DNA from: Marsupella aquatica
Lineage: Eukaryota; Plantae; Marchantiophyta
Assembly: GCA_973895155.1 (NCBI GenBank)
Contig: OZ316893.1
Span: 11,796,359-11,860,358 of the forward strand
Direction: 5' to 3'
DNA: 64,000 nucleotides
The notes beneath the pieces are model-generated. The model searched no databases. It was not told the origin of the DNA and saw only the letters and a list, made by a program, of their open reading frames with translations. Of the stretch, positions 4,095 through 60,428 are shown in pieces. Position numbers and translations under genes: made by a program. The stretch's first letter is position 1. The number at the start of each line of letters is the position of its first letter.

Positions 4095-4345
4095 TACACA
4101 GTAGTTCCACCATTTACGCATAGTAGTTTTACAAACTAGATGCATAGTAATTCCACCAACTACGCATAGTAGTTGCACCAATTACGCATAGTATTTTCAC
4201 CAACTACGCATAGTAGTTGTACCAATTACGTATAGTAGTTTCACCAACTACACATAGTAGTTGCACCAATTACGTATAGTAGTTCCACCAATTACGCGTA
4301 ATAATTCCACCAACTACGCACGATAGTTCCACCAACTATGAATAG
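4095..4345 (+). repeat. 22-bp tandem minisatellite (TAGTAGTTCCACCAACTACGCA consensus, ~11 copies)
   Basis: Head-to-tail degenerate units with no unique spacers, followed by a TATA-bearing LTR-like segment at ~4340-4475. Confidence 0.9.
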
Positions 4346-5444
4346 TACTAGCACACTTATAGGTGCTTGATGCTTGCCACTTGGCTTCCATCCAAGGGTC
4401 AAGGCATCGATCCATGCCCTCTTGGAAAACACAAAGGGGCACTATAAATAAAGTGAAGAGGAGCACACTCTCCTCATTCGCATTTATTTGATCTATCGTG
4501 TTGGACTCGCAACACTGTAAGGAACTCTTCCCCTCTTGTGCACATGTCTTGTTTATTATTTACCTCCATGCTTGGGTACTAACTTGATTGTTAGCCTTAG
4601 AACTATTTTATATTTTATGTTTATTAGTCTTGAGATCAATTTAGTGTGCTTGTAATAAATAATATGATAAATGGAGTACCTAGAGTTTATCCTCCACCTG
4701 CTGTGCCATTTGTCAATCCTTTCTTAATTAGAATTCATTGTCTTAGCAAGCATACCATGAGAATGCATCTTCTTTATCATTTTGGGTTTGAGTTAATGGA
4801 AACAGTTATGAATAGCGATGCACCATTTGTATACCCGATTGTTGTTTATGGAAATGAATGGAATGTAACTATTTTTATTTTATATTAGATGGATTTTAAT
4901 AGACAATCCGTAAATATACCGGAGTTAGATTTGAATAGGCTTCCTAATAATGTGTCTGATTTTCCTTCATCTATTGACATTAGAGTGGTATGCCGTAAGA
5001 AGGTTGATTGTAGAGATGTTTTAGTTAGAAAGTATGGAGATGAAAGATACAATGTTATGCTTAGGATGCCAGAGCCTGTGATTATATCATCTATGGTAAA
5101 TCTTAAGATCATAGTCTTTGTTTTCTATAATTGACTTATCTAATTGTAGGATTCGTTGGAAATTGCAATCTATGACTTGACTTGGGAAGTAAGTTATGTG
5201 GAAAGAGGATAGGCTGATTCGAGGCTTAGTGTGAGGAAGCCGCTCATCATAGAGTGGGACAGAGGCTGTGAGAGATATTTTAGAGGATAACGGTGAGAGA
5301 AATTGATCGACAAAGGGGATCGCAAGGGTAATGTGAGGTGAGAAAAGACGTATTTTGGAAAGGTTTCTTCCAAGATAGGAAAAACAAGAGCTCGGTGCTT
5401 CCCAAGAACTAAAGATTCCCCCGACAGCGCCCAGGCATGTGGGT

Positions 5445-9779: not shown

Positions 9780-10150
9780 GGTTTTTGCATCAAACCCCTA
9801 ATACACAAGGGTAGCACTTGCTACATCATAACATGGTAATCATGAGTTTTCATGTACTACCAAGTTTTTTGTCCTTCACATGCTTTTTGAAGGCACCAAC
9901 ATAGTTTGAGGGCACTCTCAAAGAACTTAATCTTGCAAGAAAAATCTTTCACTCTAAATCTGAGCAAACATAAGGTGCTTGAACTTCAAGAGTAAATTAG
10001 CCTTGTTTGGATGAGGTTATAACCAAAGTTATGGCCTTAAGCCTTTTTCTTCAAGATCCAATATCACTCCCCCTGTGTCTTTCTCACCCGAATTTTTTTT
10101 AGTAAACTCTCACAGACATTATTCTCAATGTGCATCAAATCCACATTTGT
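9780..10150 (-). pseudogene. CACTA/En-Spm transposase (Tnp2/TnpD) remnant, downstream exon
   Basis: The minus strand encodes VDLMHIENNVCESLL and MKTHDYHVMM*QVLPLCIRGLM, matching the conserved CACTA motifs DxMHIEKN and KSHDCH. Confidence 0.8.
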
Positions 10151-12429
10151 TTTTGCTTGGATCAAATTCTTGCAAGTCAGATCACAACACAATATTCAGT
10201 ATATGCTTGGTTATCATAACCAGGAACTTAAAATACAAAGGTGGAATGAGCTGAAGACAGACCTCCCTCGGGGTAATTGGATTCTTGGCGGAGATTTTAA
10301 CATGAAGAAAATGAGAGAAGATTCGATGGGTATCTCCCCTATGACCAGGGGAGGAGAAGTGAAACTATGGAGATTCTTGAAGGTCAGGCTTGACTTGGCT
10401 GATGCATTTTTAATCAAAGAGGAAGCTTCTGGAGCTCGATTCATGTGGAGGCGATGCAAGAATAATGTGATGGTGCAGTCTAGACTCGACAGATTTTACA
10501 TCAGCAAAAAGGGGGAGTGGCTAGGAAAGCTGACGGAATTGATACATGATGGAGGCTCAGCCCTCTCGGATCATGATCCAGTGATTTTAACCCTTCAATT
10601 AGGTAATGCGGACGGTGGTTTCACACACTCACGGGTGGTGTGGTTAAAGCAAATCCAGCGATGGTTGGAAAAGAGGAAACTTGGAAGAGCTAGAAGCAGC
10701 ATGGCAACAAGGTAAAGGAGAGTGCTCCAAACCCTTGCTAGATTTTGATAAGGCTAATTATAGTCTGAGGAAGGATGTACAGGCAGAAGCAAAGTTCCCC
10801 TAAAGATCAAGAGCAGGATCGAGAGGAAAAAATGTTAATGCTTCGCAACCAACTACGTGCGCTTAAAATAATTATATTAGAGGAGGCAGTTTTTAGTGAA
10901 TACATCAATGTGGAGGACCATCTACACGCGGCTGAATTGGAAGAGGCGCACATTGGGAGGCGTCTGGCCAAAATAAAGTGGTTAGGAGAAGGTGAGGAGC
11001 CGACCAAAGTTTACTTTGCAACGGTGAAAGCAAAGCACTGCAGAGAAGCAATGAAATCTCTGATTATTGAGGGGGGGATCGAGATCACGGACCCTAGGCT
11101 GATTCTATAAGAAGTTGTTCAGTAGTGTAAGCAGCTATACGCCCCTGTTGCCCCTACTGTGGCTGAACGCGGGGAGATGGTGTGTGCTCACAAAACGTTG
11201 CTAGCACACACCAGACACTATCGACTACGGACTTAACAAAGATGGAAAATCTCCCAGAATGCAAAGAAATCAAGGAGACTCTGTGGATGCTATCACCAGA
11301 CAAGACACCAAGTCCGAACGGGATGACAGGTGAAGTATACAGAGCATGTTGGGACTTCATTCATGAGGACCTGACTGCTATGATACATGTATTATGGCTG
11401 ACGGGCGAATTGGATTAAGGATGGGATCATTAAATTTATCCCTAAGAAGCCAGATAAACGGTTCTTGAAGGATTGGCGTCCTCTCACAATGTTGAATACA
11501 GTCTACAAACTCATAGCTAAGATCCTAGCCGCTTGGCTGAAGGCTGTCTTACCTAAGATGATAAATGCGCAACAGGCAGTGTTTATCCCTAGGCGAAACA
11601 TTCTGGAAAATATATCTCTTGCTTGGTTAATGTGTGATTGGGTGAAGAATAGGAAAGTAGAATCATTATTTCTCAAACTAGACTTTGAGAAGGCATTTGA
11701 TAGGGTCAACCATGACTACATGTGGCCCGAGACAATGCATTTACTGGGGATCAGTAGTCATTTTATTAAGTTAGTTCAAGCGCTACTTACAGAGGCCAGC
11801 TCACGAGCACTTGTGAATGGTCTGCTATCAAAATCAATTGGGTTGAACCGTGGTGTCAGGCAAGGATGTCCATTGTCTCCACTACTCTTTGTAATATCAA
11901 CTCAACCTCTAATGGACCTGATGGAGCCAGAGCTGCTAGCAGGGAGGTTACTAGGAATCAAGATCTCCAAGGAATTAATAATCTGTTGTAGATTTTTTGT
12001 GGACGACTTAGGTATGTTTATCCCTACAATAGAGAGGAGCTTTCATATGGCCAAAACAGTTCTGACTTGCTACAAAACTACCACAGGAGCCAATTGAACC
12101 TGAAAAAATTGGTGGTGATCCCACTAGCAATTTTGTCTATCCCACGCTGGCTGACAAATACAGGCTGTATAGCTAGCAAAAAAGGAGAGATGCAGAAATA
12201 TCTAGGTGCACCTCTGGGGCTGGATCTGAGAACAGATCAACATCGCAGGTCTATTTTGGACAAGATAGACGCAAGTCTCTCATCTTGGGCTAACAAATTG
12301 TTGTCATTTTTTGGAAGGGTTCTACTGGTTCGCCACATACTCTAGGCAATTCCAATTTATCACTCAATGTTTCTAAAAGCCTTAGAGGGGTTGGCGAAGA
12401 AACTGATTGCACTATGCAGGGATTTCCTA

Positions 12430-12760
12430 TGTCACACCATTCTAGGTAGTGTTAGAGTGTATCGTACTATCTAGATCCGTATGTTTGGTATGTGTGCTAT
12501 ATGACCCGATAAGGTTCCGTTAGGTTTGTGTGAGAGGGTACTTCTCACTTGTGAGGCATTGAAAGATAATCTTTCAATGTTGAGCCTTGGAGAGAGAGGA
12601 GCTTGAGTGTGGCTATGGTGGCTGTGAGCTCCGCTTGTGTAACGTGGATTCCTTGAGTAGTGCAAGGTGCGTTGGCTTGACATACGTGTGTGATTGGATC
12701 GGTGCGGGATCGATGGGGTATTGTTGACCAGGATTGTTGTGCCAATTGTTGAGGAGATTA
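12430..12760 (+). repeat. Terminal repeat A1 (331 bp)
   Basis: Same length as A2 (21435-21765), 12 mismatches by manual alignment. Confidence 0.95.
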
Positions 12761-12771
12761 CATTGAAAGAT
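12760..12771 (+). promoter_or_regulatory. Putative self-priming primer-binding site
   Basis: ACATTGAAAGAT, immediately after A1, is the exact reverse complement of ATCTTTCAATGT (12569-12580) inside A. No TGG-type tRNA PBS at this position. Confidence 0.7.
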
Positions 12772-14023
12772 CAGATGTGAACTTTGCTATGCGGACTGTG
12801 CAAACAAAAGTTTGTATGTGTTGATTGAGTTGGCGACGGTTTGGGGAAATCATTGTGTGGATCCGTGGTAGCTCGGATCGTATTGAATAGATCGTTGGCA
12901 TCTTGGTTGGTTGCTGGTAACGGATCTGAAGTGGGAGATCCAAGTTCTGAAGTTCTGCTGTTGATGGTTTTTGGACAGAGTTCTCAAGCAGATCGGTGGT
13001 GCCCTCCGATCATTGTGAAGCCTTTGATAAGCTGATTGGGTGATTATTGTGAGCTCTTTGATAAGGATTTGTGCGTGTAGTGGGCTGCTCTGTAGATCTG
13101 AATCTGCATATCAATTGGTCGATGTTTGTTCCATTTTTCGGGAAGAAAGAAAAGAGCTTTCGACAATTTTTGGGTTCCTGCTGGTCGACAACTTTTCATG
13201 AAGGAAATCAGCAGTTTTTGGGAGCTTTTCGTGAAAGAAGTAGTCATTTTTGGGGTCAGGTGTGAGGCACGCGAGGTCACCTATCCCGAAAGTGCTCCCA
13301 ACCACAAGCGCGAAGTCATCCATCGTGAGCGCAGGTAGGCGCGAGGTCGAGGTCACCCATCCCGGGGCTATTATGGGCCGTGAGCGCGAGGGGAGGCACG
13401 AGGGCTATTCCAAGTCGCGAGCGCAAGGCGAAGCGCAAGGTCACCCATCTTGGGGCTATTCTCAGCCGCAAGCGCTTAACTGGCAAGTTCTCATCCCACC
13501 TTATGTACACACAAGTTTTCACAACTTGTTGTTTAGATTCAAGTGCCAGAGGGCTTTATACACTTTCCGGTTTGCTTAGAGCCTTGTTTCGGGCCAAATT
13601 AGAGGTTCTTTAGAGAGGTTTTTGATAGTTTTGAGTTCATCTAAATACACAGATTGAACCAATTCTGCATGGTTTCTCATCTATAACATTGGGACATCAT
13701 GAAGCCTATTATGAAGGCCTTTCATTGAATATTATGAAGATTTGTTTGATCAATGTGTGATCACTCTTGGTGTGGAGAGTTAGTGTTTGACTATTCTTGT
13801 TGATTGGATCCTCTCCACACTTGTTTCCTGTTTATGCGCCATGTTGGTTTGGTATGGGCGCTTGATTCCATAGGAGTGATCCGGGTTTGCAAACGGACAT
13901 TCTAGTGTGCTGTGTATTTCTCTCCTAGTGATGTTGGAGTGATGCCCAACACACCATGGTGAGTGCTTGTGGTGCTGACAGGGACAGATTGCCCTTAGGG
14001 TTAGCACATAGATTAGATTAGGG

Positions 14024-15260
14024 TTGGTCACCACGGATTCTTCTGGTGCTGCTGGGTTACCTGATGGACGACGGACCGGTTTCACTCGGAGTGGGGCACA
14101 ATTTCGGCCAGCGGCATTGGTAGCAGTCAACAATGCAGCTTTAGATAGTGATTCCGATGAGGACTCAGTCACCAGTTCTCCTCATCATCAGGTGGTTGCA
14201 CCTTTGTTGTGGGATATGGACGAGATGTACGGGGCTACAAAGGGCCCACGACGATACTCTGGTGCAGTTGGCACAATTGATCTGGATGACTTCATCCAGG
14301 AGTTTGATACGTGGTGCGATATGCAGACACTGCATAACGCCACATTATTTACCCCTTTCATGGCATGGAAAGGATTATTTCAGCATTTGGAGGGGCCACC
14401 CATGGATGACTACCATGAGTTTGGGAAGGCTCATTTAGTTGAGATTGAGGCATGGAGGCAACATTGATCGCCTAATTATGTGTCCATCACCTATGGCACT
14501 AGTGCGGCTGCCCAACCCATTGCCACAGCTGCTGCTTCTTCTAGCAGCACTAGCCAGAGTGGCACACCATCCACCAGCAACACTCAAGCAGCATCCACCG
14601 CTACTCCTGCCGGTGTGATTGTGACAGGAACTGGAGTTGCGCCAGCATTTAACCCTGTGGTGGAATTCTTTGAGGTACTGAAGCAGAACTATCAGGGTGT
14701 GAGAACTGATAAGTTGAAGGGTCTCCAGGAGTTTCAGCGCAAGACTGGAGAGAGTCTACGCGAGGCATACACTCGTATGCGCAGATTGATCACCGTCACC
14801 AAGGGAGTGACAGAGGCTCAGGCAGTCCAGTTTTGGTATGCAATTCTGGGCAGAGAATTGTGACGCAGAGTGAGAGATGTCACCCTGCTTAGGGATGCAG
14901 ATCCCACATTGGCAATTGTTTTTACCCTTTCTAAGCATATTGAGCTCAATATGGTGAATGAGAAGGTGGTGACTTCTGGATTTTCCAAGGAAGCACCAAA
15001 GGCTGCATCTATATCCACACCACAGCCTACTGCACGGAAGAGCCAGAGGGAGAAGCCTACTGCACGAGAGTCTACCAGCCAGAGACTTGTGCCCTCTTAT
15101 GTTGGACAGCAGTCAGGATGTTGGACTTGTGGTGGGGATCATGCACAGAGATATTGCCCAGATCATAGAGGATCAGGGGGAGCATCAGCGCCTAATCAGC
15201 GATAGTGTGATCACTGTGGAGCTCCTGGACACACCAAGGATAGGTGTTTCTCACTCCACC
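14024..15260 (+). pseudogene. Gag region of the retroelement polyprotein, with two zinc knuckles
   Basis: DLDDFIQEFDTWC and FQRKTGESLREAYTRMRRL (retrotransposon gag-like). Knuckles CWTCGGDHAQRYC and CDHCGAPGHTKDRC. In-frame stops; true start not resolved. Confidence 0.85.
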
Positions 15261-16099
15261 CTGAGTTACGGAGAGGAGGATCACGTACACATGATCAGGG
15301 AAGAGGAGGAGGAGGTAGAGGTGGTGGACATGGTCGTGGCATGCCACATGCAGGGAGACAGGGAGGTGACGTTGCCCTTGTTGTAACCATAGATCCAAAG
15401 GATGCTAAAATTGCTCAATTGGAGCAACAACTAGCTGCCATGGCTAGTTCCCAGGTGAGACCTAATTCTGGTGATGGGGCATCTACATCCTATGGACCTT
15501 CCACATCCCATGGTCCTTCCACATCTTATGGAGCTGATGGAGACCTTGCCACCATGGGATTCATGTGTGGCACTGCACATATTGATGCATCAGCAGCGTT
15601 GACACGTGGGGCAGCCAAAGCTCTTGAGCCCCGAGGAGCAGTAGTGGAGTTAAATCCACAGAGGGGGGATGCACATCGGCAGACAAAGCTTCCTCAATCT
15701 TTTACATTGTCAGAGATAGTTCAGACTCCCTCTATGAACCTGGTTCGGACAAACCCTTATGTGGGTAAGTTGGCAGAATCAGGTAGTGATGCAGTAGGGA
15801 TGACAGGTACCCTGCTGGGGGCGGCTACTGCCATGGTACACACCCCATTATTTTCAGCGACAGACATGCTGAACTTGGGAGTTGGTCCTGTAGAAGTGTT
15901 CAGATTGGCAGCTACACTCTATGAGGACACTCCAGTGGTTGCTTCCCATGTAGAAGCAGCTTGCAGTGTTGAAGCAGTGAAGATCATGCCACCTACTGCT
16001 ACTAGTGAGACATGGCATGCAGCAGCAGCAAGGTTGGTGGATTTACCAGCACGCCCTCCATTTGAGAGGACTAGGTTTAATCCTAGAATTGTGTCATTG

Positions 16100-16500
16100 G
16101 ATAATCAAAGTGGTATCTTCCGATTAGTTGGGCCTTCTAGGGCAGTATACCAGCCAGAGAGAGTGTTATTGGATACTGGTGCTCAGCCCTTGATGTTGGG
16201 TAAGTCTGCCATATGTGGATTGGGATTGCGTCCAGAGGATTTGGAGGATTGTCCCTTTCCCATTCAGACTTCATTGGGGGGACCTACACCTACATAGCAC
16301 ATTACCAGGAGACCTCTTGATTTAAGGATTCAGGAAGGTCATACCACAGATAGCTCACAAATACAGGCGCGAGCTATTCTGACTAAGGCAGAGTCATATG
16401 ATGTGTTGGTGGGATGTACAGTGCTCTACCCCATGGGATTTATTCTTGATTTTTGGGAGGAATCAGTGTCATACAGACCTGATTGGCAGTCAAGAGATGC
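16100..16500 (+). pseudogene. Aspartic protease domain
   Basis: VLLDTGAQPLMLG (DTG at ~16172) and downstream YDVLVG, in the same frame as gag. Confidence 0.85.
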
Positions 16501-16879
16501 TCGATTGAGCAAATTTCCAGTGAGATTTAGTGGACCTGTGGGAGGCCCTAAATCCACACCATTGTCTTTGGCAACATTCAGTGGTCTAATTGCTGGACCT
16601 GATGATTTGATTGAGGGTAATGCGCATTCAGCAGATGTTCCACCCTTGGAGGAGTCTCATGAGGAGCACATCATGTGAGGATTACCTGTTGGCAGTGTTG
16701 TGCCACCAGTGTGGGGCACTGCACAGGCCTTGCCACAGGCAACAGCACGATTGGTACATGATGCATGGCGTCATGCTTGTACACCATAGTCAGGACCAGA
16801 GCAGTCTCTTGCAGATGGACCTGTGACTCTTTCACCATTGGATACCACTCCTATTGCTTGGCAATATCCACTGGAGGGT

Positions 16880-17830
16880 ATTTGTTTGTTGGATCTTTTT
16901 GGTGGGATTAGCACTAGATTGGCTGCTGTTCTTCAGACAAGAATTCTTGTGCGTCGTTATTTGTATGTGGAGACAGATGAGACAGCACGGAGGGTCTCAT
17001 TGTGACATGTGGCTATGTTGGTGGATAGATATCCACAATTGCTGCCAGTGAATGCTGTTCGTGGTTATCAGCACTAGTTACCTGCTGATATTTCATTGCT
17101 GGGGGCGGATCATCTACATCGTGTTGGCCCCATTGATTTGGTGATTGCTGGTTGGCCATGTTAGGGCCAATCTAGAGCTGGCATTGGGCATGGACTTCAT
17201 GATCCACGCTCTGCACTATTTTGGGAGATGTTACGGGTGCTACATCATCTCCAGCTACATCAAATACAGTCTCCAACATACATTTTGGAGAATGTGCCAT
17301 TGTTAGGTGATGATCGTAGTCGGATTGTTGCTAGTGTTCACCAGGTGAGGTCTTGGATTGGACCTGTTGTGTTATTGGATGCTGCACGTGTGGGTTCTCG
17401 TGCACATCGTCCACACTTGTGGTGGACCAATTTGATCCCATATGAGGTGCTGAAGCGCGCATCTGACAGCATTCCACGCTCACCAGCCTTAGTGGTGGAT
17501 GATATTTTGGATCCAGGGCGTCGTGCACAGGGTGTGACCCAACCTGATAGACCTCCATTGGTAGTGGTCAATGCAGTTGGGCGCCCACGTTGTGCATTAC
17601 CCATTCTTGTAAGCCACTCTGCTTCATATGCATTCAGAGAAGGTGGCCCTGGACTTGTGTGGGACACAGCTCTCCAACAGTTAGTGGAGTCTACTGCTGA
17701 TGAGAGAGAGCGTGCTATGGGATTTTTGACTGGCACCACTGCAGTTGCCTCTGTGTCAGAGGGTTTGCGGCGCCAGGTTCTTGGTCAAGCAATGGATCTG
17801 AATTGTTTGACTTGGATTATCAGCTTGGGA
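16880..17830 (+). pseudogene. DNA (cytosine-5) methyltransferase domain, DNMT3-like, inside the polyprotein
   Basis: Motif I LDLFGGI, II YVETD, IV DLVIAGWPC*GQSRAG (catalytic Cys 17159-17161), VI YILENV, VIII DAARVGSRAHRPHLWWTN, IX ERERAMGF, X RRQVLGQAMDL. Canonical order, same frame as gag, PR and RT; three premature stops. Confidence 0.92.
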
Positions 17831-18043
17831 GTAGCTGAACAGTTGCGGATGCACTCTGCTAGAATTACTGATTGTCCCTTGGTGAGCTTGCGGTCCACTG
17901 AGACAGTACTGACCACAGTTGGGGGCGAGCAGACCTATGGACCTATGGCTGGACAGATTGTTGAGTAGGAAGGGACTGCTCAATCTACTACTAAATAGCA
18001 AACATCAACTATCTCTTCTACCCTACAAAGAGATATTAGGGAT

Positions 18044-19593
18044 TTGGTGGAGAGTTGGGAACCACAGCTTGGCCCTAAGTTGACAGGGAAGGAGAGACGT
18101 CGCATGCATCGATTCCTAAAGAGTTATTGGAATTGTTTTGCATTTAGCATGAAGGATTTGGGGACATTAAAGGGTCCTGGTATTCAGATTGAATTGGCTA
18201 GTGATGCGCCAATCTTTCATAGGCCATACCATTACAGTGACATGGAGAGAGCTCTGATTCAAAGTAGAACTCAAGATTTGTTGGAGGCTGGATTGGTGGA
18301 GATTTCATATGGGAAGTATGCATCTGCCATAGTGATGTCAGCCAAGAAGGATGTGCATGGCAATTACACAGATAGGCGCATGTATGGTGATTATAGACCC
18401 ATTAATCGCCAGACAAAATCTGATAGATATGCCATGCCCACACCTGAGGAGATCTTTGATGCTGTGGGGCATGCAAAGGTTTTTAGTTCATTGGATCTAA
18501 GGGCAGGGTACCATCAGCTTCCAATTAGGCATGCTGACAGGTCCAAGACAACATTCTGGGGGATTGATTCTTATAGCAAAGATCGTTTGTATCAATGGTT
18601 ATTCTTACCATTTGGATTGAAGAATGCACCAGCTGAGTTCCAGAGAGTCATGGATCGAATCCTTGCAGGTTTGGATTTTGTCAGATGTTATATTGATGAT
18701 ATTTTGGTTTATTCTTCTACTGTGGAAGAACATCAGCAGCACTTGCAGATTGTGTTGGAGAGATTGAGAGCACATGGGTTGAAGCTCCATCCTAGCAAGT
18801 GTAAGTTCTTCCAAGACCAGATTGAGTATTTGGGCCACACTATATACCCAGGGGGATTGGGTGTACAGCAAACTAAAGTGGAGGCCATTACAGAGATTCC
18901 TTGTCCTACTGATGTGAGTAGAGTTCGTGCATTCTTGGGATTGGCGAGCTACTACAGGAGGTATGTTAAAAGATTTAGCGAGCTTGTTAAACCTTTGACC
19001 ATACTCACTAAGTTGGATCAGAAATGGATTTGGGCTGATGACCAGGAGCATGCCTTTCAGGAGTTGAAGCAAAGGTTGGCATCATCCCCTATTTTGAGAA
19101 GACCCATTTCAGGCAGACCATTTCAGCCACACACTGATTGGAGTGGAGTAGGACTTGGAGCAGTGCTGACTCAGAAGGATGATGAGGGGAATGAGTTTGT
19201 TGTGGCTTATGCCAATAGATCAACAATTCAGCAGAGGCTAAGTATAGCTCTTATGAGGGAGAATGTTTGGCAGCAGTGTGGGTTGTTGCACATTTTCGTT
19301 GCTACTTGTTTGGTAACCCCTTCACCTTGATCACTGATCATCAGCCTCTTAAGTGGTTAATGGAGTCTGACAAGCTTATAGGGAAGCTTGCACGATGGGC
19401 ATTGTTGTTACAGGAGTATGATTTCCAGGTGGTACATAGGCCTGGGAAAGTGAACTTGGATGCAGATGGATTAAGCCGCAATCCATGTACTAGTCAGCAG
19501 GATGAGACTGGAGCCAGATGGCATGATGAGTCAGATAAGGAGATGGTGCCAGGATGGCATGCATCTGCCTTTCTTTGTTGGGTGCCAGCATAA
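18044..19593 (+). pseudogene. Ty3/gypsy reverse transcriptase and RNase H
   Basis: DYRPIN, LDLRAGYHQ, LPFGLKNAP, YIDD; RNase H TDWS, EGECLA, TDHQPL. One frameshift near 19220. Confidence 0.95.
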
Positions 19594-19602
19594 AGTGGAT
19601 TT

Positions 19603-20945
19603 GTGGACTCTACCTCATTGGATGGAGTGGATGAGGAGTCTTCAGATGTGGATGTTGGTGAGGTAACTTCTGGACAACAAGATATTCAAAATGATGTGAG
19701 AGTGTTGGAATATCTGCGTAGTGGTTCTATTGTTGGCAGTGTTGATGCCAACGAACGTGACAGGGTTCTACAAAGAGCCAAGAGGTTTCGATGGGAGAGA
19801 AACCATCTTTTGAGAGTACTGCATGATGGCAGGGTGTTGGTGGTACCAAAACCATCACAACGAGTCCATTTGGTGCGACATGCACACGAGGAGTTGGGGC
19901 ACCTTGGTGTGAAGCGCACTTATAGCTTGTTGCAGACACAGTATTGGTGGCGTGGTATGCACACTCATGTCCAGCAGTTGATAGCTAAGTGTGTGGTAGG
20001 TGATAGAGTGAGAGCATCATTTAATGCTCCCACTCCCTAGTTGCACCCGTTGCCGATCATGGGTTTGGGATATCGTTGGAGTTTGGATTTTGCTGGTCCA
20101 TTACCTCTTACCCAACGTCATAATCAGTATATTTTGGTCATGGTGGAGCACTTCTCCAAGTGGATTGAGCTAGTGGCATTGCCAGATAAAGCCAGTGGAG
20201 GAGTTGCTGCTACATTTTTGGATCGTGTACTTAGTCATTTTGGAGCACCAGCTGAGGTATTGACTGATCAGGGAACTGAGTTCCGTGGAGAGTTTGAGAA
20301 TTTGTGTGAGCAAGCTCTGATTGATCATTGTACTACCTCTCATGATCATCCTGAGGCAGATGGATTAGCTGAGAGAGTTGTGCAAACTATGAAGAGAGGA
20401 TTGCGTAAGTATGGCTTGCAGGTTGGTCATTTGGGAGATTGGGATCTCCAGCTACCTTGGTTAGCTATGGGCTACCGTTTCAGTCGGCAAACATCACTTG
20501 CATCTTTCCACCTTACTTTTTGCTCTATGGTAGAGAGCCAGATTTGCCAGCAGCTATTCGTCGTGATGTTGCACCAATTGTGAACTTGGATGATCCTGAT
20601 GTTTGGGCCAAGGTGTGTTCAGAGAGAGCACAGGTATTTCAGAGAGTGATATCCATGGCTTTTGACAACCTTGCCATTGCCCAACATCATGATACTTTGA
20701 GGTATGCCACTATTCATGGAGGAGGTTACCGTGCAAGCATTCGACGATTTCATCTTGGTGATTATGTTTATTTGCAGCAGACAGCACCCACGACACTTGA
20801 TGTGACCGCAAACCGGACAATCTTACGTGTGCATGAAGTGTTGCCTTCTGGTGTCTTGATGTTGGAGGGACGCGATGGTATGGTTTGGAAGGATTATGTG
20901 CGCAACTGTGCACCATGTCACCTCCCAACATTGATGGTACAATAG
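19603..20945 (+). pseudogene. DDE integrase (HHCC zinc finger, rve core and C-terminal region)
   Basis: HEELGHLG...WWRGM...CVVG (last Cys lost); WSLDFAGP, LTDQGTEF, DGLAER. Frameshifts near 20510 and 20930. Confidence 0.93.
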
Positions 20946-20980
20946 ATCCAAGCTTGGCACATGTTCGTGCTGGCTTGAAA

Positions 20981-21121
20981 TGTATGTTGTGTGGATCTGC
21001 TCAGGGAGCAACTACTATGTTGATTTGTGATAAGTGTTCTAGAGGATGGCACATGTCATGTTTGACACCACCATTGCAGGTGATTCCTAGTGGATCATGG
21101 TTGTGTCCTCAGTGTCGGTGA
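20981..21121 (+). pseudogene. C-terminal PHD finger of the integrase
   Basis: CMLC...MLICDKCSRGWHMSCLTPPLQVIPSGSWLCPQC is a C4HC3 PHD pattern, followed by the stop. Confidence 0.9.
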
Positions 21122-21285
21122 AGCCAACTAGTTATCATTTGTGTTCTCTTGGCAGATATGGATTGCAGGTAGGTGATCGATGGGGCTCACTTGCATCCGG
21201 CCTCTTGATCTTCACACCTAAAAAGGTGTATATCAACCTTGTAGAACTCATGGCTAGCTAGAGTTAGGGGACCTTACTTCCAGCT

Positions 21286-21295
21286 AGGGGGGCGA
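21286..21295 (+). promoter_or_regulatory. Polypurine tract
   Basis: AGGGGGGCGA immediately before repeat B1. Confidence 0.75.
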
Positions 21296-21432
21296 TTGTG
21301 GGTTTTGGACATATGTGGACATGAGTTCCACTTGTATTCCATTCTCTTGTGTTTGTGATGTGGCAGTGTGACTATGTCTGGATGTATATGACAAGCGATG
21401 TATGTTATGTAGTGATGTGTATGCACACGACA
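21296..21432 (+). repeat. Repeat B1 (137 bp)
   Basis: Matches B2 (21766-21902), 11 mismatches by eye; ends ...CACGACA. Confidence 0.95.
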
Positions 21433-21434
21433 AC

Positions 21435-21765
21435 TATCACACCATTCTAGGTACTGGTAGAGTGTATCATACTATCTAGATCCGTATATTTGGTATGTGT
21501 GCTATATGACCCGATAAGGTTCCGTTAGGTTTGTGTGAGAGGGTACTTCTCACTTGTGAGGCATTGAAAGGTCATCTTTCAATGTTGAGCCTTGGAGAGA
21601 GAGGAGCTTGAGTGTGGCTATGGTGGCTGTGAGCTCCGCTTGTGTAACGTGGATTCCTTGAGTAGTGCAAGGTGCGTTGGCTTGACATACGTGTGTGATC
21701 GGATCGGTGCGGGATCAATGGGGTATTGTTGACCGGGATCGTTGTGCCGATTGTTGAGGAGATTA
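21435..21765 (+). repeat. Repeat A2 (331 bp)
   Basis: Copy of 12430-12760, separated from B1 by the dinucleotide AC. Confidence 0.95.
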
Positions 21766-21902
21766 TTGTGGGTTTTGGACATGTGTGGACATGAGTTCCA
21801 CTTGTATTCCATTCTCTTGTGTTTGTGATGTGGCAGTGTGACTATGTTTTGATATATGTGACAAGCGATGTATGTTGTGTAGCAATGTGTATGCGCATGA
21901 TA
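21766..21902 (+). repeat. Terminal repeat B2 (137 bp)
   Basis: Copy of B1, abutting A2 and followed by the TSD CCTA. Confidence 0.95.
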
Positions 21903-22747
21903 CCTATGGGGGTACAATTCGGAGGGAGGAAAACATGTTCCACTGGTTCCTTGGGCTAGGTTGGCTAGACCCAGAGTTGAAGGTGGATTGGGGCTAAAAG
22001 TCATTCAGACGCGCTTTTGTCTCAATGGTTTACTGGGGCTTTAGACTCCCCCAATACTGAATGGGCAAGGTTGTTTGCTGAAAATCTGAGGCTGGTTAGC
22101 TGGGTGAACTTTAAGGTGATCCAAAGGAATCAATATTTTTTCCAAGACAAAATGTTATTATGTTGTCCTTGTTCATTCAATGGATTAGCTTACCTTGGTG
22201 GGCTGTGGAAAGCTTGGATCCAACTCTGGGCACACTTGATCTTTTTGACTACCACTGTTATGCCCGGTAGATGGATAGTAAATGATGCTCTCCGTTGCTT
22301 AAAGGGACTACAGGCCTGGCCTAACGAGGACTATGCAGTGGTTACAAGACTATGTGGTAGGATGGATATCCGTTGCATTCAGGACTTATGGTCTGGGGAC
22401 TCTCATGAATAGCGCAACATGGAAGCCAAATTGGAGCAGACAGAGGGTTCACCCGGAGAGAGAAGAGCTGCTGCAGAGATTTTTTGAGGAAGATCAGGGA
22501 AACTAAAAGTTGCAACAAGAATGTTGCCCCCGGATTGCGATGTTGGTGTTGGGCCGACTGTCCTGATGGCCTAAAAGCATTTAGGATCAACAATCGGCGG
22601 GCTTATATCCTTCTACACCCCTCTATAGGAGATCATGGTAAACTGAATTATACATGGAGCAGTCACAAAACTGACGTGGAATGGAACTCTCTATGGACAG
22701 GACTGTGATGTTCAGACTTATCATCTCGGGCTAAGACATTTATCTGG

Positions 22748-27099: not shown

Positions 27100-27830
27100 T
27101 CTTGTAGTCGTGCGATCCTCTATTGTACTGAGAGGACTGCGTGACATTGTATCGGCATTGTGGTGGATCACTCCTGATCAATGAATGATATCAAAAGTGT
27201 ACTCCTGCAAGATCAATACCCGCCTAGCTAGTTTACCGATCAATTTGTTGTTGGTCATCAACCATTTAAGTGATTGATGATCTGTGAACAACATAATTTT
27301 TTTACCATACATATATGATTGGTAGAAAATATACCACAGCCCATATCACAGCAAGTAGCTCTCCTTCATAAGATGAGTTGTTACTATGTGAAGCATAGGC
27401 ATTGAAATTCTTAACATGTGTACGATAATAGTTGCATAGATCTAAAAAGATGCATAGTTTATTGACATATGTAGGTGTTTTTATATTGTTGATGGTCAGA
27501 ACCTTGACCTCATCTGGCATGAGTCCATCAAAAATCACTCGGTGTTCCAGATAGATCACACTGTTCACCCCGAATTCACATTTCTTGGGGTAACATTTGA
27601 AATTAGTTTTTGTGAGTCTTTTGAACAGGTCTTTCAAATCATCCATGTGTTTGTCAAATGAAGGGTTGTGTACTATGACATTATCAATATAACATTCGAT
27701 GTGTGCTGCAATTTTCTTCACTATATCCATAACTTTTTGAAAAAAGATGGCTGCATTCTCATAACTTGTCACTGCCATGAAATGCAGTCTTCTTTCTGTC
27801 CTTGTGACAGAGCCAATGGCCCCAAAGAAT
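27100..27830 (-). pseudogene. Gypsy RT/RNase H remnant, internally deleted
   Basis: CYIDNVIVH, KCYPKKCEFG, SSYEGELLAVIWAV, DHQSLKWLMTNNKLIGKLAR. Confidence 0.85.
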
Positions 27831-30800
27831 GCTTTTAAAGGGTAGTGGTAACACACACATGTAAATAAATAGATTTGTGTCAAGTTTTTTTTGCTTTTGT
27901 TCTATTACAACCTTGCCGAAGATAATTTATGCGCAATATAGATGAGGTGAGTGTTGATATTTTTTCATGTCCTCTTGATTTTAATTATCGGCCAAGCCTT
28001 GGATAAAGAAGGGGTTGGTCACTGGCCGATGCAGGACAAGGCATGTGTCCTAATGCCTTTCCATGTAGGAGTCGGATGATTTCCTATCTTTTTAATTTTT
28101 TTAAGTGACCCTAGTATTAGCATAATGGGAGCCGGGTCAAAAGGCGTGAGTGGCCAAACGCCACTTTTGGGACCGGTCAGCAAGAGTTAGGGAAGGAAAA
28201 ATAAAAGAGACCCAACCAAGGAACGGCCCAACCAGCAACGAGCGGCTCGAGCCAATAACAAGGCGGCCTAGATAAAAAGCCAGCCAAGGAGGAGTAGAGT
28301 CGACCTGGGAGTGCCAAGGCTCGAAGAGTGAACCGATGTCCGCGTGATCGTATTTTATGGTAAAAGCATGTTGGCTCTTATGAGTCGACCTTGTATGTCC
28401 ATAAATTCTATAGTAAAACCAAAATGATAACTCTTGTAAGAAGGGTAGTGGGTATTAAGAAAAGTTCAGGTGAAACTAATATATTATTAAATTTTACTTT
28501 ATCATATTTGTTGATCAACACCTCTCAAAAACTAATTTTTTTACGACATATCATCATAATATTTCAAGAGAAAATAAAATAGGAATGTCATCTGACTCCT
28601 ATTTAGATCCATGACTTCAATAGAGGACAAAGATAATGCATTCTCACTCCTCTCAGTAAGACACTACTGGGTATACTATTGCCTTATTAGAACTCATAAC
28701 AACAATTGTAATTATTCCAAACAAATTCAATTGTAATATTCCAAACAGATTACATAAATTAATAACTTATCCCATTCCAATGAATGATGATTCTATAAAG
28801 TTTGTATACTTATTCTGTAATTTGATTGTGAAAATAGTCATTCTTGCGAAGAGATCACAGAGGCCAAAGGTGAAAGTAAAAGGGCTTTGAAAGAATCAAA
28901 TGCTGTTACTTTGTCCTGCTCGATTAGCGAATAAAAAAAAACTTGTCTCTGCCCTGCTTCGGCCAGCATCGTCATCAGCCACGGGTAAGCCCGACGGTCC
29001 AAGCCAAACCTTCTCTTCCACCGGGGCGGGGAGAGCTGAAGCTTAGAAAGGCCCTTGTTCTTTGCCTTACATAGCTAAAGGCCCTCTACCCCATTCATAA
29101 ATCCAAACGTACAAATGGTTCATCGGTTTCACCGAATGCTCGAAATTGGATGCTCTTGGGCATCTTCACGCAATTTTCAGGTGCTTTAGATACCGTTTAA
29201 TATTTATGTGTCCTTTCGGTGAAGTAGCTATTAGAGATTTGAAAAACAATTGGTTATCCATAAATTATATCTTTCTTTTTTCGCAAAACCGGTAGATAGT
29301 TATATATTTGTTTTTCATTCATATATATATTTTTCAAAAGAAGTGTGCATTACAAAGAACCCTCTCAGCCGGCGAAGTGCACGGAAATCTACAAGCCATT
29401 TATGGTCCCGGCTCCTCGTCCGGACCTAGTTCTAAGCTATCTCTCGACACACCTCGAGATTACTCCCGACGCATATCCAGGTTGGGTAGGACAGAGGGTT
29501 ATGTCCTGTGGTGCCATTCAAATCCGAACAATTTTAGGGGGTGCGATCGAGCCTTACGATTGACGAGGTTTATATACATTCGCTTACATTACCTCTATCA
29601 GCTAACCCTACCCCCAAGGCTTCAAGTGCCAATGGTTAATTGCTGGTTGACAAGGACCGAAAGAGTCTCCGATTCGTCGGTACAGAACCTCATCTTAAAT
29701 ACAAGAGAACTGACAGTTTAATCGTTTCGTTTTGACCCCTTTGCTATGATTTTTTGGTTCATGCAAGAGCCCATCCCTATTTAACCATGCGAGCATAACC
29801 AAGTTGAACAAATCACACACTTTTTAATGGCATTATAAAAAAAATTCTACGATCGGTTGAAACCGGAAAAATCATATCAACGAGTGAGCGCGCTTGTTTG
29901 ATGCCCTCCTGCATGCTCCATTAGCAATCCCTCGTTCCCCGAGCTAGAAGTTCTATGGCTCGTCTTGTGAGTCTACCAGAGGTATCTCACTCAGTCTGGC
30001 TGGGAAATGGCCCAGCTATTACGTCGCTAGGGTTGACTCCAGGATTGCGGACTCCGATACGCGCCTGGATGACATGATAAAATTTGAAAAAACTATTGCC
30101 AGATTATAATTTACTTAGTATCGACTATAATATGCGCATACATATATTAACAGGTGTGGATGAAATCACTCCAATTTGTTCGGTAGTCGGTATATTCTCA
30201 TCGGCCGGCTGGTGGAAAGAGAAACTTGGGAACAAAAAAAATAACCGAAGCGATAGCTATCGCCCATCGGCTCTTTGACCTGACTTTTTTAGGAGCTTAA
30301 CGACTTTTTTAGGAGCTTAACGCTAATCCGAAATCACCTATGCGATTTATGAGCATAGCTTTAATAACCGCTTTATTCGCTTGAATGCACGTAAACCAAG
30401 AATTTATCAATAAATATGATGCGAGTCCAACCCCCATCAATCATGCAAATGTGAACCAATTTTTTTATCAATTGTTTTTGTTTACCATTTAAGCCCCGGA
30501 TATAGCCCAAATTGTTTGAACAATTGTATGTGCTTGCCTCGTCCATGATAAGGATAACTTTCTTCCCTCTCTTCCATCGCCAACCCTCTTGGGTCTGGTA
30601 TCTTTGTTTCGTGCGTACTACTCGGCGTCCGATAGCAATGTGTGTATTCTTAACGATAGGCCGATTAATGATGCCCGATATAAAGCATCATCACATTATC
30701 CTCCTCGAAGGGAAAGCCCGAGGGGGGCATGTGCTCCTTTGATAGTCTGCAAAAAAGAGGGGATGGGGTCTATAGACAATGGTAGGATCGGGGGTAGGTG

Positions 30801-34144: not shown

Positions 34145-37100
34145 ATGGGGCTCACCTGCAAAATTTGTTTCGAGCGAGCCTCGGATCAAGAGAACGGCTC
34201 GCAAGCTCGGATTACGCCCTGCGGTCATGTCTTCTGCGCTCCGTGTGCTGCGATTTGGTTTCGGAATGATGCGCCCTGCCCGGTGTGCCGCCACTCCGTA
34301 GCCGCACCTTCCGCTCTCATACCTCTCTATGACCACGATTCCGGCATACAATCACCATCGTATGGTCTCGACACTATACTTGATTGTGGGAACGCCGATT
34401 TGTTGCAAGATTGGTATGTATGTATGTAAAGACAGAAGGAGAGGGAGGGAGGGAGGGAGGGAGTCAGGCAGAGAACCTGTTAGGTCTGGGGTGTGGGGAC
34501 GGGCACGAGCAAACGAAGCAGAGACAACAGGGACATATTTGGGCTTTAGAGGGAAAGAGACAGCACAAGTCATTTTCAAACCGCACTTGCATCCAATAAG
34601 TCCATTGAACTGAGAATTAGACAGAAGATGCTTCTTGTCGCCGAATTTCCATTATCGAATGGAATCAGTACGCTCTTCCCAAGTTCTTCCTTCTATGGGG
34701 GTTTGCTTAGCTACTAAATTATTTGTAATCTTGCACAGTTCTTATCTGTACAGACATCTAGTCCCTGGGCAAATGTAGACAACTCGGATAAGCACCACTC
34801 CACTGCGAGGAAGCTTTTCACGATTCAGATTGGATCGGAAGGTTCCTGGAAAACTGTGGATGACAAAACGCTTTTAATTGATATATTATTTGTATCCTTA
34901 TCTGACCTATTAAACCCCTACAATTCTTGAGCTGGGATTGGCAATCCAGCAAACGGGCTCGTTGTACTAAACTTGACCCAATGCAAAACTTTTACATAAA
35001 ATTGTAGAATCCTGATGCTATGAACCATATACGGAAAGCTTATCTTCATGTCTCGTGAGTGAGGTTTGTTCTTGAGAGTTCCGTGATGCCCGTCACTGGA
35101 ATTATCGTTTACCTGTCCTTTTTGGACCTTTTTATTGTGCGTAATTGTTTATAGCGATCGAAGTTTCTGAATTCATCACGTGGTTTCGCTTGGCAGTTCG
35201 GAACTCTACTTTGGGCCTATAGAGAAGGAAGTGTGTTCAGAGGATTTGTTGGAAAAACTATCATCTTTTCGAAGGAAATCGTTTACTGTGGAAGTTATCT
35301 AAAGGATAAGGATGCCGGATCTGTCTAAAGGTCTTCTGTATTGGATTGTGCAGTGTTGGAGACCAATCTGAGGAGAGTGTCAACGGTGAGCCCTTGAATG
35401 GAAAGCAGAAATTTTCCCCAGAGAAAGGAAGCTCTGGAAACTGGGAATACAAGGACAAGTCCGAATCAAGAGAAGGGTTCAACAATGAAAGATCAGGGGT
35501 TACTAGTTGCTTGCCAAAGTGTGGAACCGAGGATGAGGATATACAGGTTAAATTCGTGTTAGGCAAATTGGCTGAGCGATGGCAACAGGTAGTGTTGGAG
35601 AGAGCAAAATTGAAAGTACAGGTTGCGAAGTTGGAGAAACTGAAAGGGGATCTCTCAACTCAAGTGCAATCTCTGACTGAGGAGAATATGATACTTAAGC
35701 AGGCCCTCAGCATGAGATGTAGACCAGTCGTTAGGAGTAGCGTTGTTGACGGCACGGCCGCCTGGGATGGTGAAAGTGAGATTAGCTTCCATGGAGATGG
35801 TATGTGTCAGGGATTTGACAGGGACTCGGAGGCAAACGGAAGTCTTCTGCAATCTTCGATCAACCATCCGGAGCTGTCTTTTAGCGGGACTGAGGCAGCC
35901 TTCAATAATGTAATAGTCTCGAGGCGCCCTCCGGTTAAAATAGAGGAGAGATTAGCAGCTGCCAAATGGGAACTTGGCCATACGTTTTCAATGCACTCTG
36001 GCCCAGTTCATGGAATTGCTGTTAGTCCTTCTGGGAATCTGGTAGCCACAGCATCCTGGGACCATTTATGTAGAGTATATGATGTCCATTTAGAGGAGGA
36101 AGTATCTGTGCTATCAGGTCACCTTCTCGGACTATATGCTGTTAAGTTTTCTCCAGCAAAACGTGATCTGGTGGGCACTGTAAGCTCCGATCATACATGC
36201 CGCTTATGGAATACGGACACTGGAGAATGTCTACATGTACTTGAAGGCCACACAGATGAGGTGATTGCTCAGTACTCTTTGTACTAATGCCTACCATCTC
36301 GCTTTGACTATAAATTATTTTAAGGTTCAGTGAATTAAGGGCATGAGATCTAGGAGATCTATTAATTAATGCATTACATATATTCCTCCAACTCGCGTCT
36401 ACTATTTCAGGAGGATCCTGTTGGCATCATGGAGTCCGTAATATCCTCTTTGCGTCTGCATACAGGTCAATGGATTGTCTTTTAAGCAGGGAACACATCT
36501 ATTAGCAACTGCATCGGATGATAAATCCAGCATAATATGGGATGCAGAGAAAGGTGTTGCCGTAACAACTTTAAAGGTACGACCTTCACCCGTTCGATGC
36601 GTCTTTATCGGGCTAGGTCAGGTTGTCATTGGTGCAATGCACAGAATCTGGCCCGATGTTACTACAAGGAAGATGATTTAGAGCTGTTCTAGTCGTGTCC
36701 GAAATGTGATCTTCATCAACATTTTAGGTTCTCTGCAGGCAAGAAGGGCGTACTAGCACATTAGGGAGACATCAAGGGAGGAGGTGACCTGTTTACTTCA
36801 CTGAGATTGAATGAAGTTATCTGCGTTGTCACCTCGTGCCTCCCAGCTCTCTAGATTGACTCGTCATCATACCCAATTGTCTTCCAGGGCCATCGGAACG
36901 GTGTGTATGGTGTTTGTTTTCAACCTGCTGGACACCTTGTAGCAACGGCCTCATTTGACTTCACTGCAAAATTGTGGGATCCACGTTCGGCAGAAGATAT
37001 TCAGACACTGCGAGGTCACCAAGAGGATGTCATCGGCGTGGACATTGATGACTCTGGCACCTTCCTTGCTACTGGAAGTGATGACAAAACTTGTCGTGTT

Positions 37101-40600: not shown

Positions 40601-40934
40601 TGATTTAGAGGAAAGTGCTGTAAGAATTTGTGGAAAGAACAAATAGGACGGAGAAGGGATGGAGGAAGAAGAGGCCGATTGACGGGGGAGACGATTCTAT
40701 TCTCCAACTCGCTACTGAACCTTCGGCTTATTATCCTCAGGAGCCTAGCGGCAGGGACAGGAAAAGGAGGAAGCAATAGGTGGGTTTCAGAAGAAGGGTC
40801 GGAGCCTCAGGCCTGGGGGTTCCATCAGCAGCAGCCGAGACGAGCTGTTGCTGTTGGACTGCGAGGAGAAAGCGCAGCAACAGGAGAGAGGAGGAGGAGG
40901 GGACAGGGACAAAATTCGAGGGAAAGAGCAACAG

Positions 40935-59122: not shown

Positions 59123-60156
59123 TTGAGGAATGAGGAGCACCAGAGAGGCGAGTCAGCTGCTCTTACTACGGGGGGGAGACGAGAAGTGGCGAATGTCCCT
59201 CGTAGGGAAAAGGAAACTAACTCGGCATGCGCAGGTAGTGAGGGTGCGGACACGGAGGAGTCTGAGCAGGATGAGGGGGTGGTATCGGCTGAATGTATCA
59301 ACATACTCAAGGAGGCGGCGGCTTCTACTACTGGAGATTGGAGTACTAAATTGTATACATCCGTGGAATGGAGTCTGGGTGAAGCAGCGAACAATGCGAG
59401 GCAGTTGTATAACTGCGGTATGCTTTGTTATTTTACGGATTGGACTCCGATGCTGCCAAGCTTTCAAGCTTGGATTGTGGGTCGTATGGTGGAAGAAAGG
59501 AATTGGCCAGTTTTGCAAATTAAATTTGTTGGTAAGAGTTTTTATCTAGTGGTCTTTGAGAATGCAGACCATAGAGATTTGGCGCTAACTTCAGCACCTT
59601 GGTTTTTGGAACGTAAACTGGTATACATGTTCCCATGGGACCCTTCTTTTGATATCCGGAATGAGAAGTTCACCAAGCTGCCTGTATGGATAGAGCTGCC
59701 ATTTCGGGCTTTGATTCTGGAAGGATGCCGTATGAAAATTGCAGAATCACTTGGGAAGTTGCTGCATTATATACAAGGAGATGATTATAGCTCCTATCCG
59801 CATGATAGAGCATGTATTCTGTGGGACACTGAACGGGAGGTGCCGCATAGTGCTCGGGTGGAGATTCGTGGAGCCATAATTATATGGCAACCAATTGTGT
59901 TCAAAACATCCCCTATCATTGTTTCAGATGCAATAAGAAGGGACATTTGGCAAGGGATTGCAGGGAGGGAAGAGATGTGGTGGCTGAGGCAGATCAAGAG
60001 AATAATGATGAGGACCTGGTGGGAACTCCTGAGGAATTGGATGCAGTGGCGGAGGGGGATCCGGAGGAGGTTCTTAGAACCCAACTTGAAATGAACTTGC
60101 AAGTAAGACAAGGAGCGGGGCTGATGGCACTGCGAGGAGAGTACTGTCACAGCTGA
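59123..60156 (+). pseudogene. LINE ORF1 (DUF4283-like region and zinc knuckle), frameshifted
   Basis: FYLVVFEN..RDLALTSAPWF...WDPSF...LPVWIELP; CFRCNKKGHLARDC in a shifted frame. Confidence 0.88.
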
Positions 60157-60428
60157 TATAGTAGCTATTGAATCGCTGATGAGTAAGGATAGGACTTCTT
60201 CCCCGGTGCAATTGCAAGAAACACCTTTGGGGATGGGGCAGAGTGTGGATGGCTCGACTGAGCTGCAGGACTCCTCGCTGCTAATAGTAGATTCACATAT
60301 GGAGGAGACCGGAGAGATAGCCATTGGCACACCAAGGCGCCGCAAGGGGGGGAGTGTGAGCTTGGCTACCTCTTCGGGTGGGCGAATGCGGATTTAGCTC
60401 ATGGGTGTTGGAGCCGGGGACAGAGGGG

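Follow-up and report, generated by a model that had tools for sequence, protein, structure and literature searches.

The window, by which we mean the whole stretch of 64,000 nucleotides that we analyzed, contains a 9.5-kb element (12430-21902) that is a Ty3/Gypsy retrotransposon with a DNA methyltransferase (DNMT) domain placed between its protease and its reverse transcriptase (RT). The element has the gag, protease, RT, RNase H, and integrase order and the DDE integrase by which Ty3/Gypsy elements are recognized, and its features are collected in Table 1. It was inserted into the RT frame of a LINE, whose flanks (10041-12429 and 21903-about 22700) rejoin as one frame that aligns with the second, related LINE of the window (DUF4283, endonuclease, and RT; 59123-63337). 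A Pfam search of the gag-like region returned no match. The 5′ leader of the element carries several degenerate GC-rich repeat units (13260-13480). Elsewhere in the window lie a degenerate array of 32- to 37-nt units (576-759), a 22-nt tandem array (4099-4376), an RT fragment on the minus strand (27305-27901), and frames with WD40 and KH domains (35310-36287 and 40749-41552) that are probably host exons.

Table 1. Features of the element and of its insertion site, in window coordinates
Feature	Position	Strand	Evidence
Left target-site duplication, 4 bp	12426..12429	.	same 4 bases at 21903-21906
Terminal repeat A1, starts TGTC	12430..12760	+	96.7% identity to A2 over 329 nt
Hairpin in A1; right arm 12569-12580 is the candidate self-primer	12557..12580	+	11-nt perfect hairpin; 12-nt perfect complement to 12760-12771
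Putative self-priming site right behind A1, candidate for primer binding	12760..12771	+	complementarity, 179 nt from the upstream stretch
Gag-like region, two CCHC knuckles, premature stops; start approximate	14012..16099	+	translation; resembles the N-terminal portion of relatives with ~1280-1450 aa
Protease of the aspartic type (DTG, 16172)	16100..16500	+	Asp_protease_2 E=0.005 (weak); D[ST]GA in relatives
DNMT3-like domain (C5 cytosine methyltransferase), not functional in the window copy	16868..17851	+	motifs, Pfam, PDB sequence matches; fold of an open relative resembles DNMT3A/B/C
In-frame UAG, conserved, with the two codons after it; end of ORF1 and candidate readthrough signal of TMV type	17996..18004	+	locus comparison
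Reverse transcriptase (YIDD at 18689) and RNase H, frameshift near 19225	18050..19420	+	RVT_1 E=4e-35, RT_RNaseH
Integrase of the DDE class, including an H2C2 zinc finger; frameshifts close to 20505 and 20922	19840..20940	+	Integrase_H2C2 E=5e-14, rve E=8e-14
PHD finger, end of Pol	20978..21121	+	PHD E=2.8e-12
Polypurine tract directly before B1	21286..21292	+	same position in relatives
Repeat B1, ends GACA	21295..21432	+	91.6% identity to B2 over 143 nt
Internal B1/A2 junction, decayed 10-bp palindrome, candidate integrase cut site	21429..21438	.	element end + 2 nt + element start
Repeat A2	21435..21765	+	compared with A1
Repeat B2, right element end	21765..21902	+	compared with B1
Right target-site duplication, 4 bp	21903..21906	.	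matches 12426-12429

A preliminary description of this DNA had proposed that the main motifs of a C5 methyltransferase stand in order and in one frame with gag, protease, and RT. Translation bore this out, as a frame starting at 13952 spans gag, protease, the methyltransferase domain, and RT, up to 19330. The domain contains LDLFGG (F at 16898), GWPC (C at 17159-17161), and ENV (E at 17288), followed in the same frame and in order by DAARVGSRAHRPHLWWTN (17378-17431), ERERAMGF (17702-17725), and RRQVLGQA (17768-17791). In the I-to-X numbering of C5 methyltransferase motifs, the order is I, IV, VI, VIII, IX, X, which is unpermuted. The domain had also been described as DNMT3-like rather than as a plant DRM enzyme, and the searches agreed: the Pfam profile DNA_methylase, which had been suggested as a check, matched at E=3.4e-9, and the best match in a PDB sequence search was DNMT3A (E=3.5e-10), followed at a distance by HaeIII (0.001) and DRM2 (0.13). 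On the strength of these scores, the match is not due to chance. Judging by its letters, the window copy itself is dead and cannot make the enzyme: three in-frame stops fall inside the domain (17003, 17075, and 17162), the second Arg of RxR has been replaced by His (RPH), and gag, protease, and pol all carry additional stops and frameshifts.

Homologue searches recovered 238 near-length and 54 longer homologues, including named proteins from Marchantia polymorpha, M. paleacea, Calypogeia, Riccia, and Sphagnum; the nearest named relatives are liverwort and moss proteins (63-71%), and one Marchantia cluster holds several Gag-protease-DNMT frames of ~1280 aa. A profile search returned 439 clusters at E<=1e-30, and name look-ups for 20 of its clusters or later matches yielded Closterium and Klebsormidium nitens (GAQ93235.1), with most remaining nameless. 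A search of a viral collection gave only six weak, phage-type methylase matches, and the sequencing runs listed as containing the element included none of RNA. Two homologues, P0020 and P0418, carry bacterial labels in metagenome-assembled genomes, probably through plant or algal contamination.

The preliminary description had staked its proposal on the presence of the domain in other copies, on purifying selection, and on retention of the catalytic residues, and the relatives upheld it in each respect. In 80 metagenome loci, the order and spacing of the domains were preserved wherever the contig extends that far. The catalytic Cys of the PC motif is kept in 120 of the 124 proteins that cover it, the Glu of ENV in 146 of 158, and the two Arg residues of RxR in 138 of 163 and 142 of 159; all nine core sites are intact in 43 of the 56 proteins that cover them. 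Relatives from Marchantia, Calypogeia, Sphagnum, and Closterium are among those that retain the catalytic residues. Pairwise dN/dS of the DNMT domain between families was 0.11-0.24, with dS near saturation, and the unsaturated pair of loci L060 and L061 gave 0.12, equal to protease, with RT lower at 0.05. In a decayed moss family, the median values were 0.58 for DNMT, 0.66 for protease, 0.40 for RT, and 0.31 for integrase. These ratios indicate that purifying selection acts on the DNMT domain in the relatives and that, in L060/L061 and in the decayed moss family, the domain is less constrained than RT.

A structure model of an open relative (P0002; pLDDT 92) had its best PDB match at E=1.7e-18, and every top match listed was DNMT3A, DNMT3B, or DNMT3C. 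In this model and in its motif order from I to X, the element domain resembles the catalytic domain of animal DNMT3A/B. It differs from those enzymes in sharing only about 21-22% identity with them (structural alignments), in being about 45 residues longer, and in having no PWWP or ADD domain, and it differs from plant DRM2 in not being permuted. Trees of RT and of DNMT, both midpoint-rooted and built without host DNMT3 or an outgroup, agree in separating elements with the order protease-DNMT-RT from elements with the order RNase H-DNMT-integrase. In the DNMT tree, the window groups with Marchantia, Calypogeia, and Sphagnum (support 100), so that a bryophyte-grade plant is the probable host. 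In these same trees, K. nitens sits on a long branch with a weak placement. The elements on the other side of the split form a second large Gypsy group (e.g., P0164, P0235, and P0405), in which a related DNMT lies between RNase H and integrase; the full order RT-RNase H-DNMT-integrase-PHD is present in 31 proteins. The group forms its own clade in both trees, and the single eukaryote name in it is that of the chlorophyte Monoraphidium neglectum. We found no description of this group in the portions of the Gypsy-DNMT3 literature that we covered.

Two in-frame TAGs, at 17966 and 17996, lie between the methyltransferase domain and RT of the window copy. Motif X could be located in 57 of the 80 loci, with RT following in frame in 35 and the other 22 frameshifted, cut, or interrupted. 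All 35 in-frame loci have a matching stop (27 TAG and 8 TAA), and the next codon is CAR in 32. Because many of the 80 loci are one insertion assembled repeatedly, we counted lineages rather than loci: UAG-CAR is kept in five lineages whose linkers cannot be aligned, and CAR-YYA in four. The contexts are UAG-CAA-CCC in the moss family, UAG-CAG-UUA in L060/L061, UAG-CAA-UCA in L062, and UAG-CAA-CCA in L010. The fifth lineage is the host-like family, in which contigs from four runs retain the stop and the codon after it and have a complete CAR-YYA; no alternative letter at 5% was listed at the stop or at that codon in these runs. The window copy departs from the CAR-YYA motif by one base. L060 reads cleanly as one frame of 1369 codons and a second of 1047 codons that meet at the conserved stop, and L062 likewise has two frames meeting there, apart from one shift in gag.

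Twenty-eight proteins consist of Gag, protease, and DNMT without RT, and many homologous proteins terminate 70-175 residues past motif X, again without RT. The extra TAG at 17966 reads as Gln in the close relatives P0122 and P0176, which end at the second stop; the comparison of host-like runs listed nothing upstream of 17978, leaving 17966 outside its coverage. Several relatives (P0162, P0209, and P0233) are single open frames with no stop, which counts against a leaky stop as a general feature.

UAG-CAR-YYA is the readthrough signal of TMV, and it is reported to drive readthrough of UAG at about 6-10% in stable plants (PMC2754532). The nine bases at the element stop are identical to this type I signal in four of the five lineages; here, they sit between the DNMT and RT of a retrotransposon and are a candidate for readthrough only. 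Given this conservation, we consider it probable that the UAG is read through now and again to make RT-RNase H-integrase-PHD. Readthrough would place the DNMT on the abundant, Gag-level side of the stop. The proposal that the enzyme is part of one polyprotein with RT thus holds as far as the shared frame is concerned, but the conserved UAG separates Gag-protease-DNMT from RT-RNase H-integrase-PHD.

Alternatively, the stop may be tight, and Pol may arise through splicing or from an AUG further downstream at which translation restarts; production of the DNMT at Gag level would be unaffected. The moss family has an ATG two codons past the stop, and L061 has one four codons past it. In the Marchantia gene models in which DNMT and RT are joined, the linker is left out, although these are predictions only. 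The second TAG at 17966 in the window copy points the same way, and in the abundant moss-metagenome family, where CAA-CCC falls short of the full motif, reinitiation or splicing is possible. However, L060, L062, L010, and the window have no ATG near the stop, and what the five lineages conserve is the frame across the stop and the CAR codon, not the letters of the linker. We therefore regard splicing or restart as unlikely, and readthrough as the preferred reading.

The window element is a dead copy of a Gypsy-DNMT3 element whose intact relatives may, with readthrough, work as follows. The first frame encodes Gag, protease, and DNMT and is closed by the conserved UAG, which ribosomes would occasionally read through into RT-RNase H-integrase-PHD. 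The DNMT, made at Gag level, would be packed into the particle, released by the protease, and left to methylate the new cDNA before that cDNA integrates. If the stop is indeed leaky, packaging and release by the protease are likely, and the DNMT is quite probably catalytically active on DNA. That its main substrate is the element's own cDNA, probably at CG, we favor with moderate confidence, and we think it reasonably likely that the account as a whole is correct.

An active enzyme might instead have host chromatin as its useful target, either the target site or older copies in trans, acting with the PHD-bearing integrase after import. An enzyme made at Gag level would presumably exceed the need of one cDNA, and the PHD finger on the integrase is in keeping with a chromatin target. 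However, fusion to Gag puts the DNMT where cDNA forms, and the DNMT has no chromatin-reader domain of its own; we give this reading a small chance. Less probable still is a role of the domain in binding nucleic acid (DNA or RNA) inside the particle, or in methylating the genomic RNA, with no methylation of DNA. The K. nitens domain was inactive in yeast (PMC5890265), as would be expected in that case, but the catalytic Cys, ENV, and RxR are retained in most relatives, and both the sequence and the model match DNMT3 first. Finally, the broken state of the window copy might suggest that a single element picked up a gene fragment of no consequence for it, or that the assembly is at fault. This reading is refuted by an order and spacing that recur in dozens of loci, by purifying selection, and by relatives from Klebsormidium to Marchantia, and the 439 clusters also tell against it. 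Self-methylation of cDNA by a packaged DNMT remains our preferred account.

We also compared how the ends of these elements are built. The repeats of the window copy are laid out as A1-body-B1-A2-B2, not as two complete direct LTRs, and its outer ends read TGTC...GATA (one change) inside a 4-bp duplication. Among ten loci with both ends, the target duplication was exact in six, had one mismatch in three, and was unreadable in one, and the layout was A-body-B in seven, A-body-B-A-B in two, and a deleted form ending A-B in one. Seventeen moss-metagenome loci end in polypurine tract, B, and flank without a second A, while four have B and then A. The A-body-B copies retain 4-bp target duplications. 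We rejected these copies as proof of integration from a one-LTR circle, since such copies also arise when B1 recombines with B2; a symmetric circle model predicts A-B-A-body-B copies, and B preceded the element in none of 21 readable 5′ ends.

Behind A1, no tRNA-type primer site is apparent, judging by the lack of a TGG start, and a self-complementary site is found instead. In self-priming, the first bases of the RNA serve as the primer. The same geometry, built from unrelated letters, occurs in L056, L058, L076, and L060, and a complement of at least 10 nt is retained in 9 of 22 moss loci. The junction GACA-NN-TGTC is present in L006, L040, L041, L052, L060, and L062. Where A2 meets B2, the join is variable (L040, L041, L052, and L063), being flush, carrying a 17-nt filler, or carrying 11 nt of primer-site sequence plus filler; this variability fits what is expected of joined cDNA ends.

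These ends suggest a scheme in which the RNA would prime itself via the hairpin arm in A1, the linear cDNA would be B.A-body-B.A, with A2/B2 representing its joined ends, and integrase would cut the palindrome that lies within the B.A repeat. The products would be A-body-B-A-B insertions when the ends are joined, or A-body-B insertions. We hold the chances of this scheme to be about even. Self-priming is known for Tf1/Sushi and Tcn1 (PMC6317226), which the present element resembles in having a complement inside its 5′ repeat and no tRNA-type site, and from which it differs in having a PHD finger and no chromodomain. Retroviral integrase can cut a palindromic 2-LTR junction, as reported for foamy virus (PMC1180852); the CA-NN-TG palindrome here likewise matches the integrated ends, but unlike the foamy-virus junction, it would lie inside the repeat and not at the ends of the linear cDNA. 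Split repeats of the A-body-B-A-B layout are described as standard for Ngaro, PAT, and VIPER (PMC6681497). More tentatively, and with considerable doubt, we put forward that an old Gypsy lineage of green plants has combined a DNMT at Gag stoichiometry, set by a TMV-type stop, with self-methylated cDNA, self-priming, and circular or end-joined integration through a cut palindrome, and has thereby converged on the DIRS lifestyle. If true, a DDE-integrase element would have come to live as DIRS elements do, and the model plant Marchantia offers open reading frames for its study.

Why transposons carry a silencing enzyme of their hosts has been an open question since 2018, partly since the known hosts are hard to handle. 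Because M. polymorpha has many annotated Gag-protease-DNMT frames of ~1280 aa, and methyltransferase mutants exist for it (10.1101/363937), self-methylation of cDNA becomes testable. A DNMT positioned ahead of a stop that is probably leaky should greatly outnumber RT and integrase, and the end structure suggests an integration route unusual for Gypsy elements. In addition, surveys of bryophytes can mistake Gag-protease-DNMT frames for DNMT genes of the host. The observed/expected CpG ratio is 0.18-0.41 in the element, a deficit relative to its flanks (0.48-0.66); since host silencing explains this deficit too, it is unusable as evidence for self-methylation.

The preliminary description had supposed that such an enzyme is not well described in land plants. 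We found no published description of a land-plant Gypsy-DNMT3 element in a search confined to openly available papers, nor any mention of one in the portions consulted of PMC11982613, PMC9985172, PMC6317226, PMC11244446, 10.1101/2021.11.30.470311, 10.1101/2022.06.16.496473, and 10.1101/363937; a 2026 preprint, in the part available, mentions "streptophytes (Gypsy-DNMT3)" without naming land plants. The kind of element, however, is known. De Mendoza et al. (2018; PMC5890265) described KnitGypsy-Dnmt3 in the charophyte K. nitens, with DIRS-like repeats and purifying selection, and proposed that retrotransposon Dnmt3 enzymes methylate their own cDNA. Those authors found no methylation by the K. 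nitens enzyme in yeast, a result that they considered inconclusive, whereas Dnmt3 enzymes of Symbiodinium DIRS elements methylated CG in the same host (PMC5890265). The latter, SymbioDIRS-Dnmt3, resemble our element in being retrotransposon-borne and in having split repeats, and differ in using a tyrosine recombinase, with no duplication expected, where ours has a DDE integrase and 4-bp duplications. The window element is not itself a DIRS or Ngaro element, which have a tyrosine recombinase and neither protease nor DDE integrase, as it carries both a protease and an rve integrase.

The closest match among known systems is KnitGypsy-Dnmt3, with which our element shares the Ty3/Gypsy domain set, an intronless and unpermuted Dnmt3-like domain, A-body-B-A-B repeats, and purifying selection. 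The K. nitens protein GAQ93235.1, which is presumably one of the published copies, is a protease-DNMT protein that shares 35% identity with the window domain across 322 aa (E=1e-53). To judge from sequence, domain order, and repeats, the window element belongs to the streptophyte Gypsy-DNMT3 lineage. The running text of the published description that we covered contains no leaky stop, self-priming hairpin, internal palindrome, or A-body-B forms, and its authors place DNMT, RT, and RNase H together in a single ORF (PMC5890265). K. nitens P0306 (marked partial) and its nearest relatives, P0293/P0428 and P0343, end about a dozen residues past the DNMT, and Klebsormidium-type elements may stop before RT too. 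Our element differs from KnitGypsy-Dnmt3 in its host of land-plant type and in having its DNMT cut from RT by a conserved UAG-CAR(YYA). What is new relative to the published description is that the DNMT closes a Gag-protease-DNMT frame, with a stop before RT.
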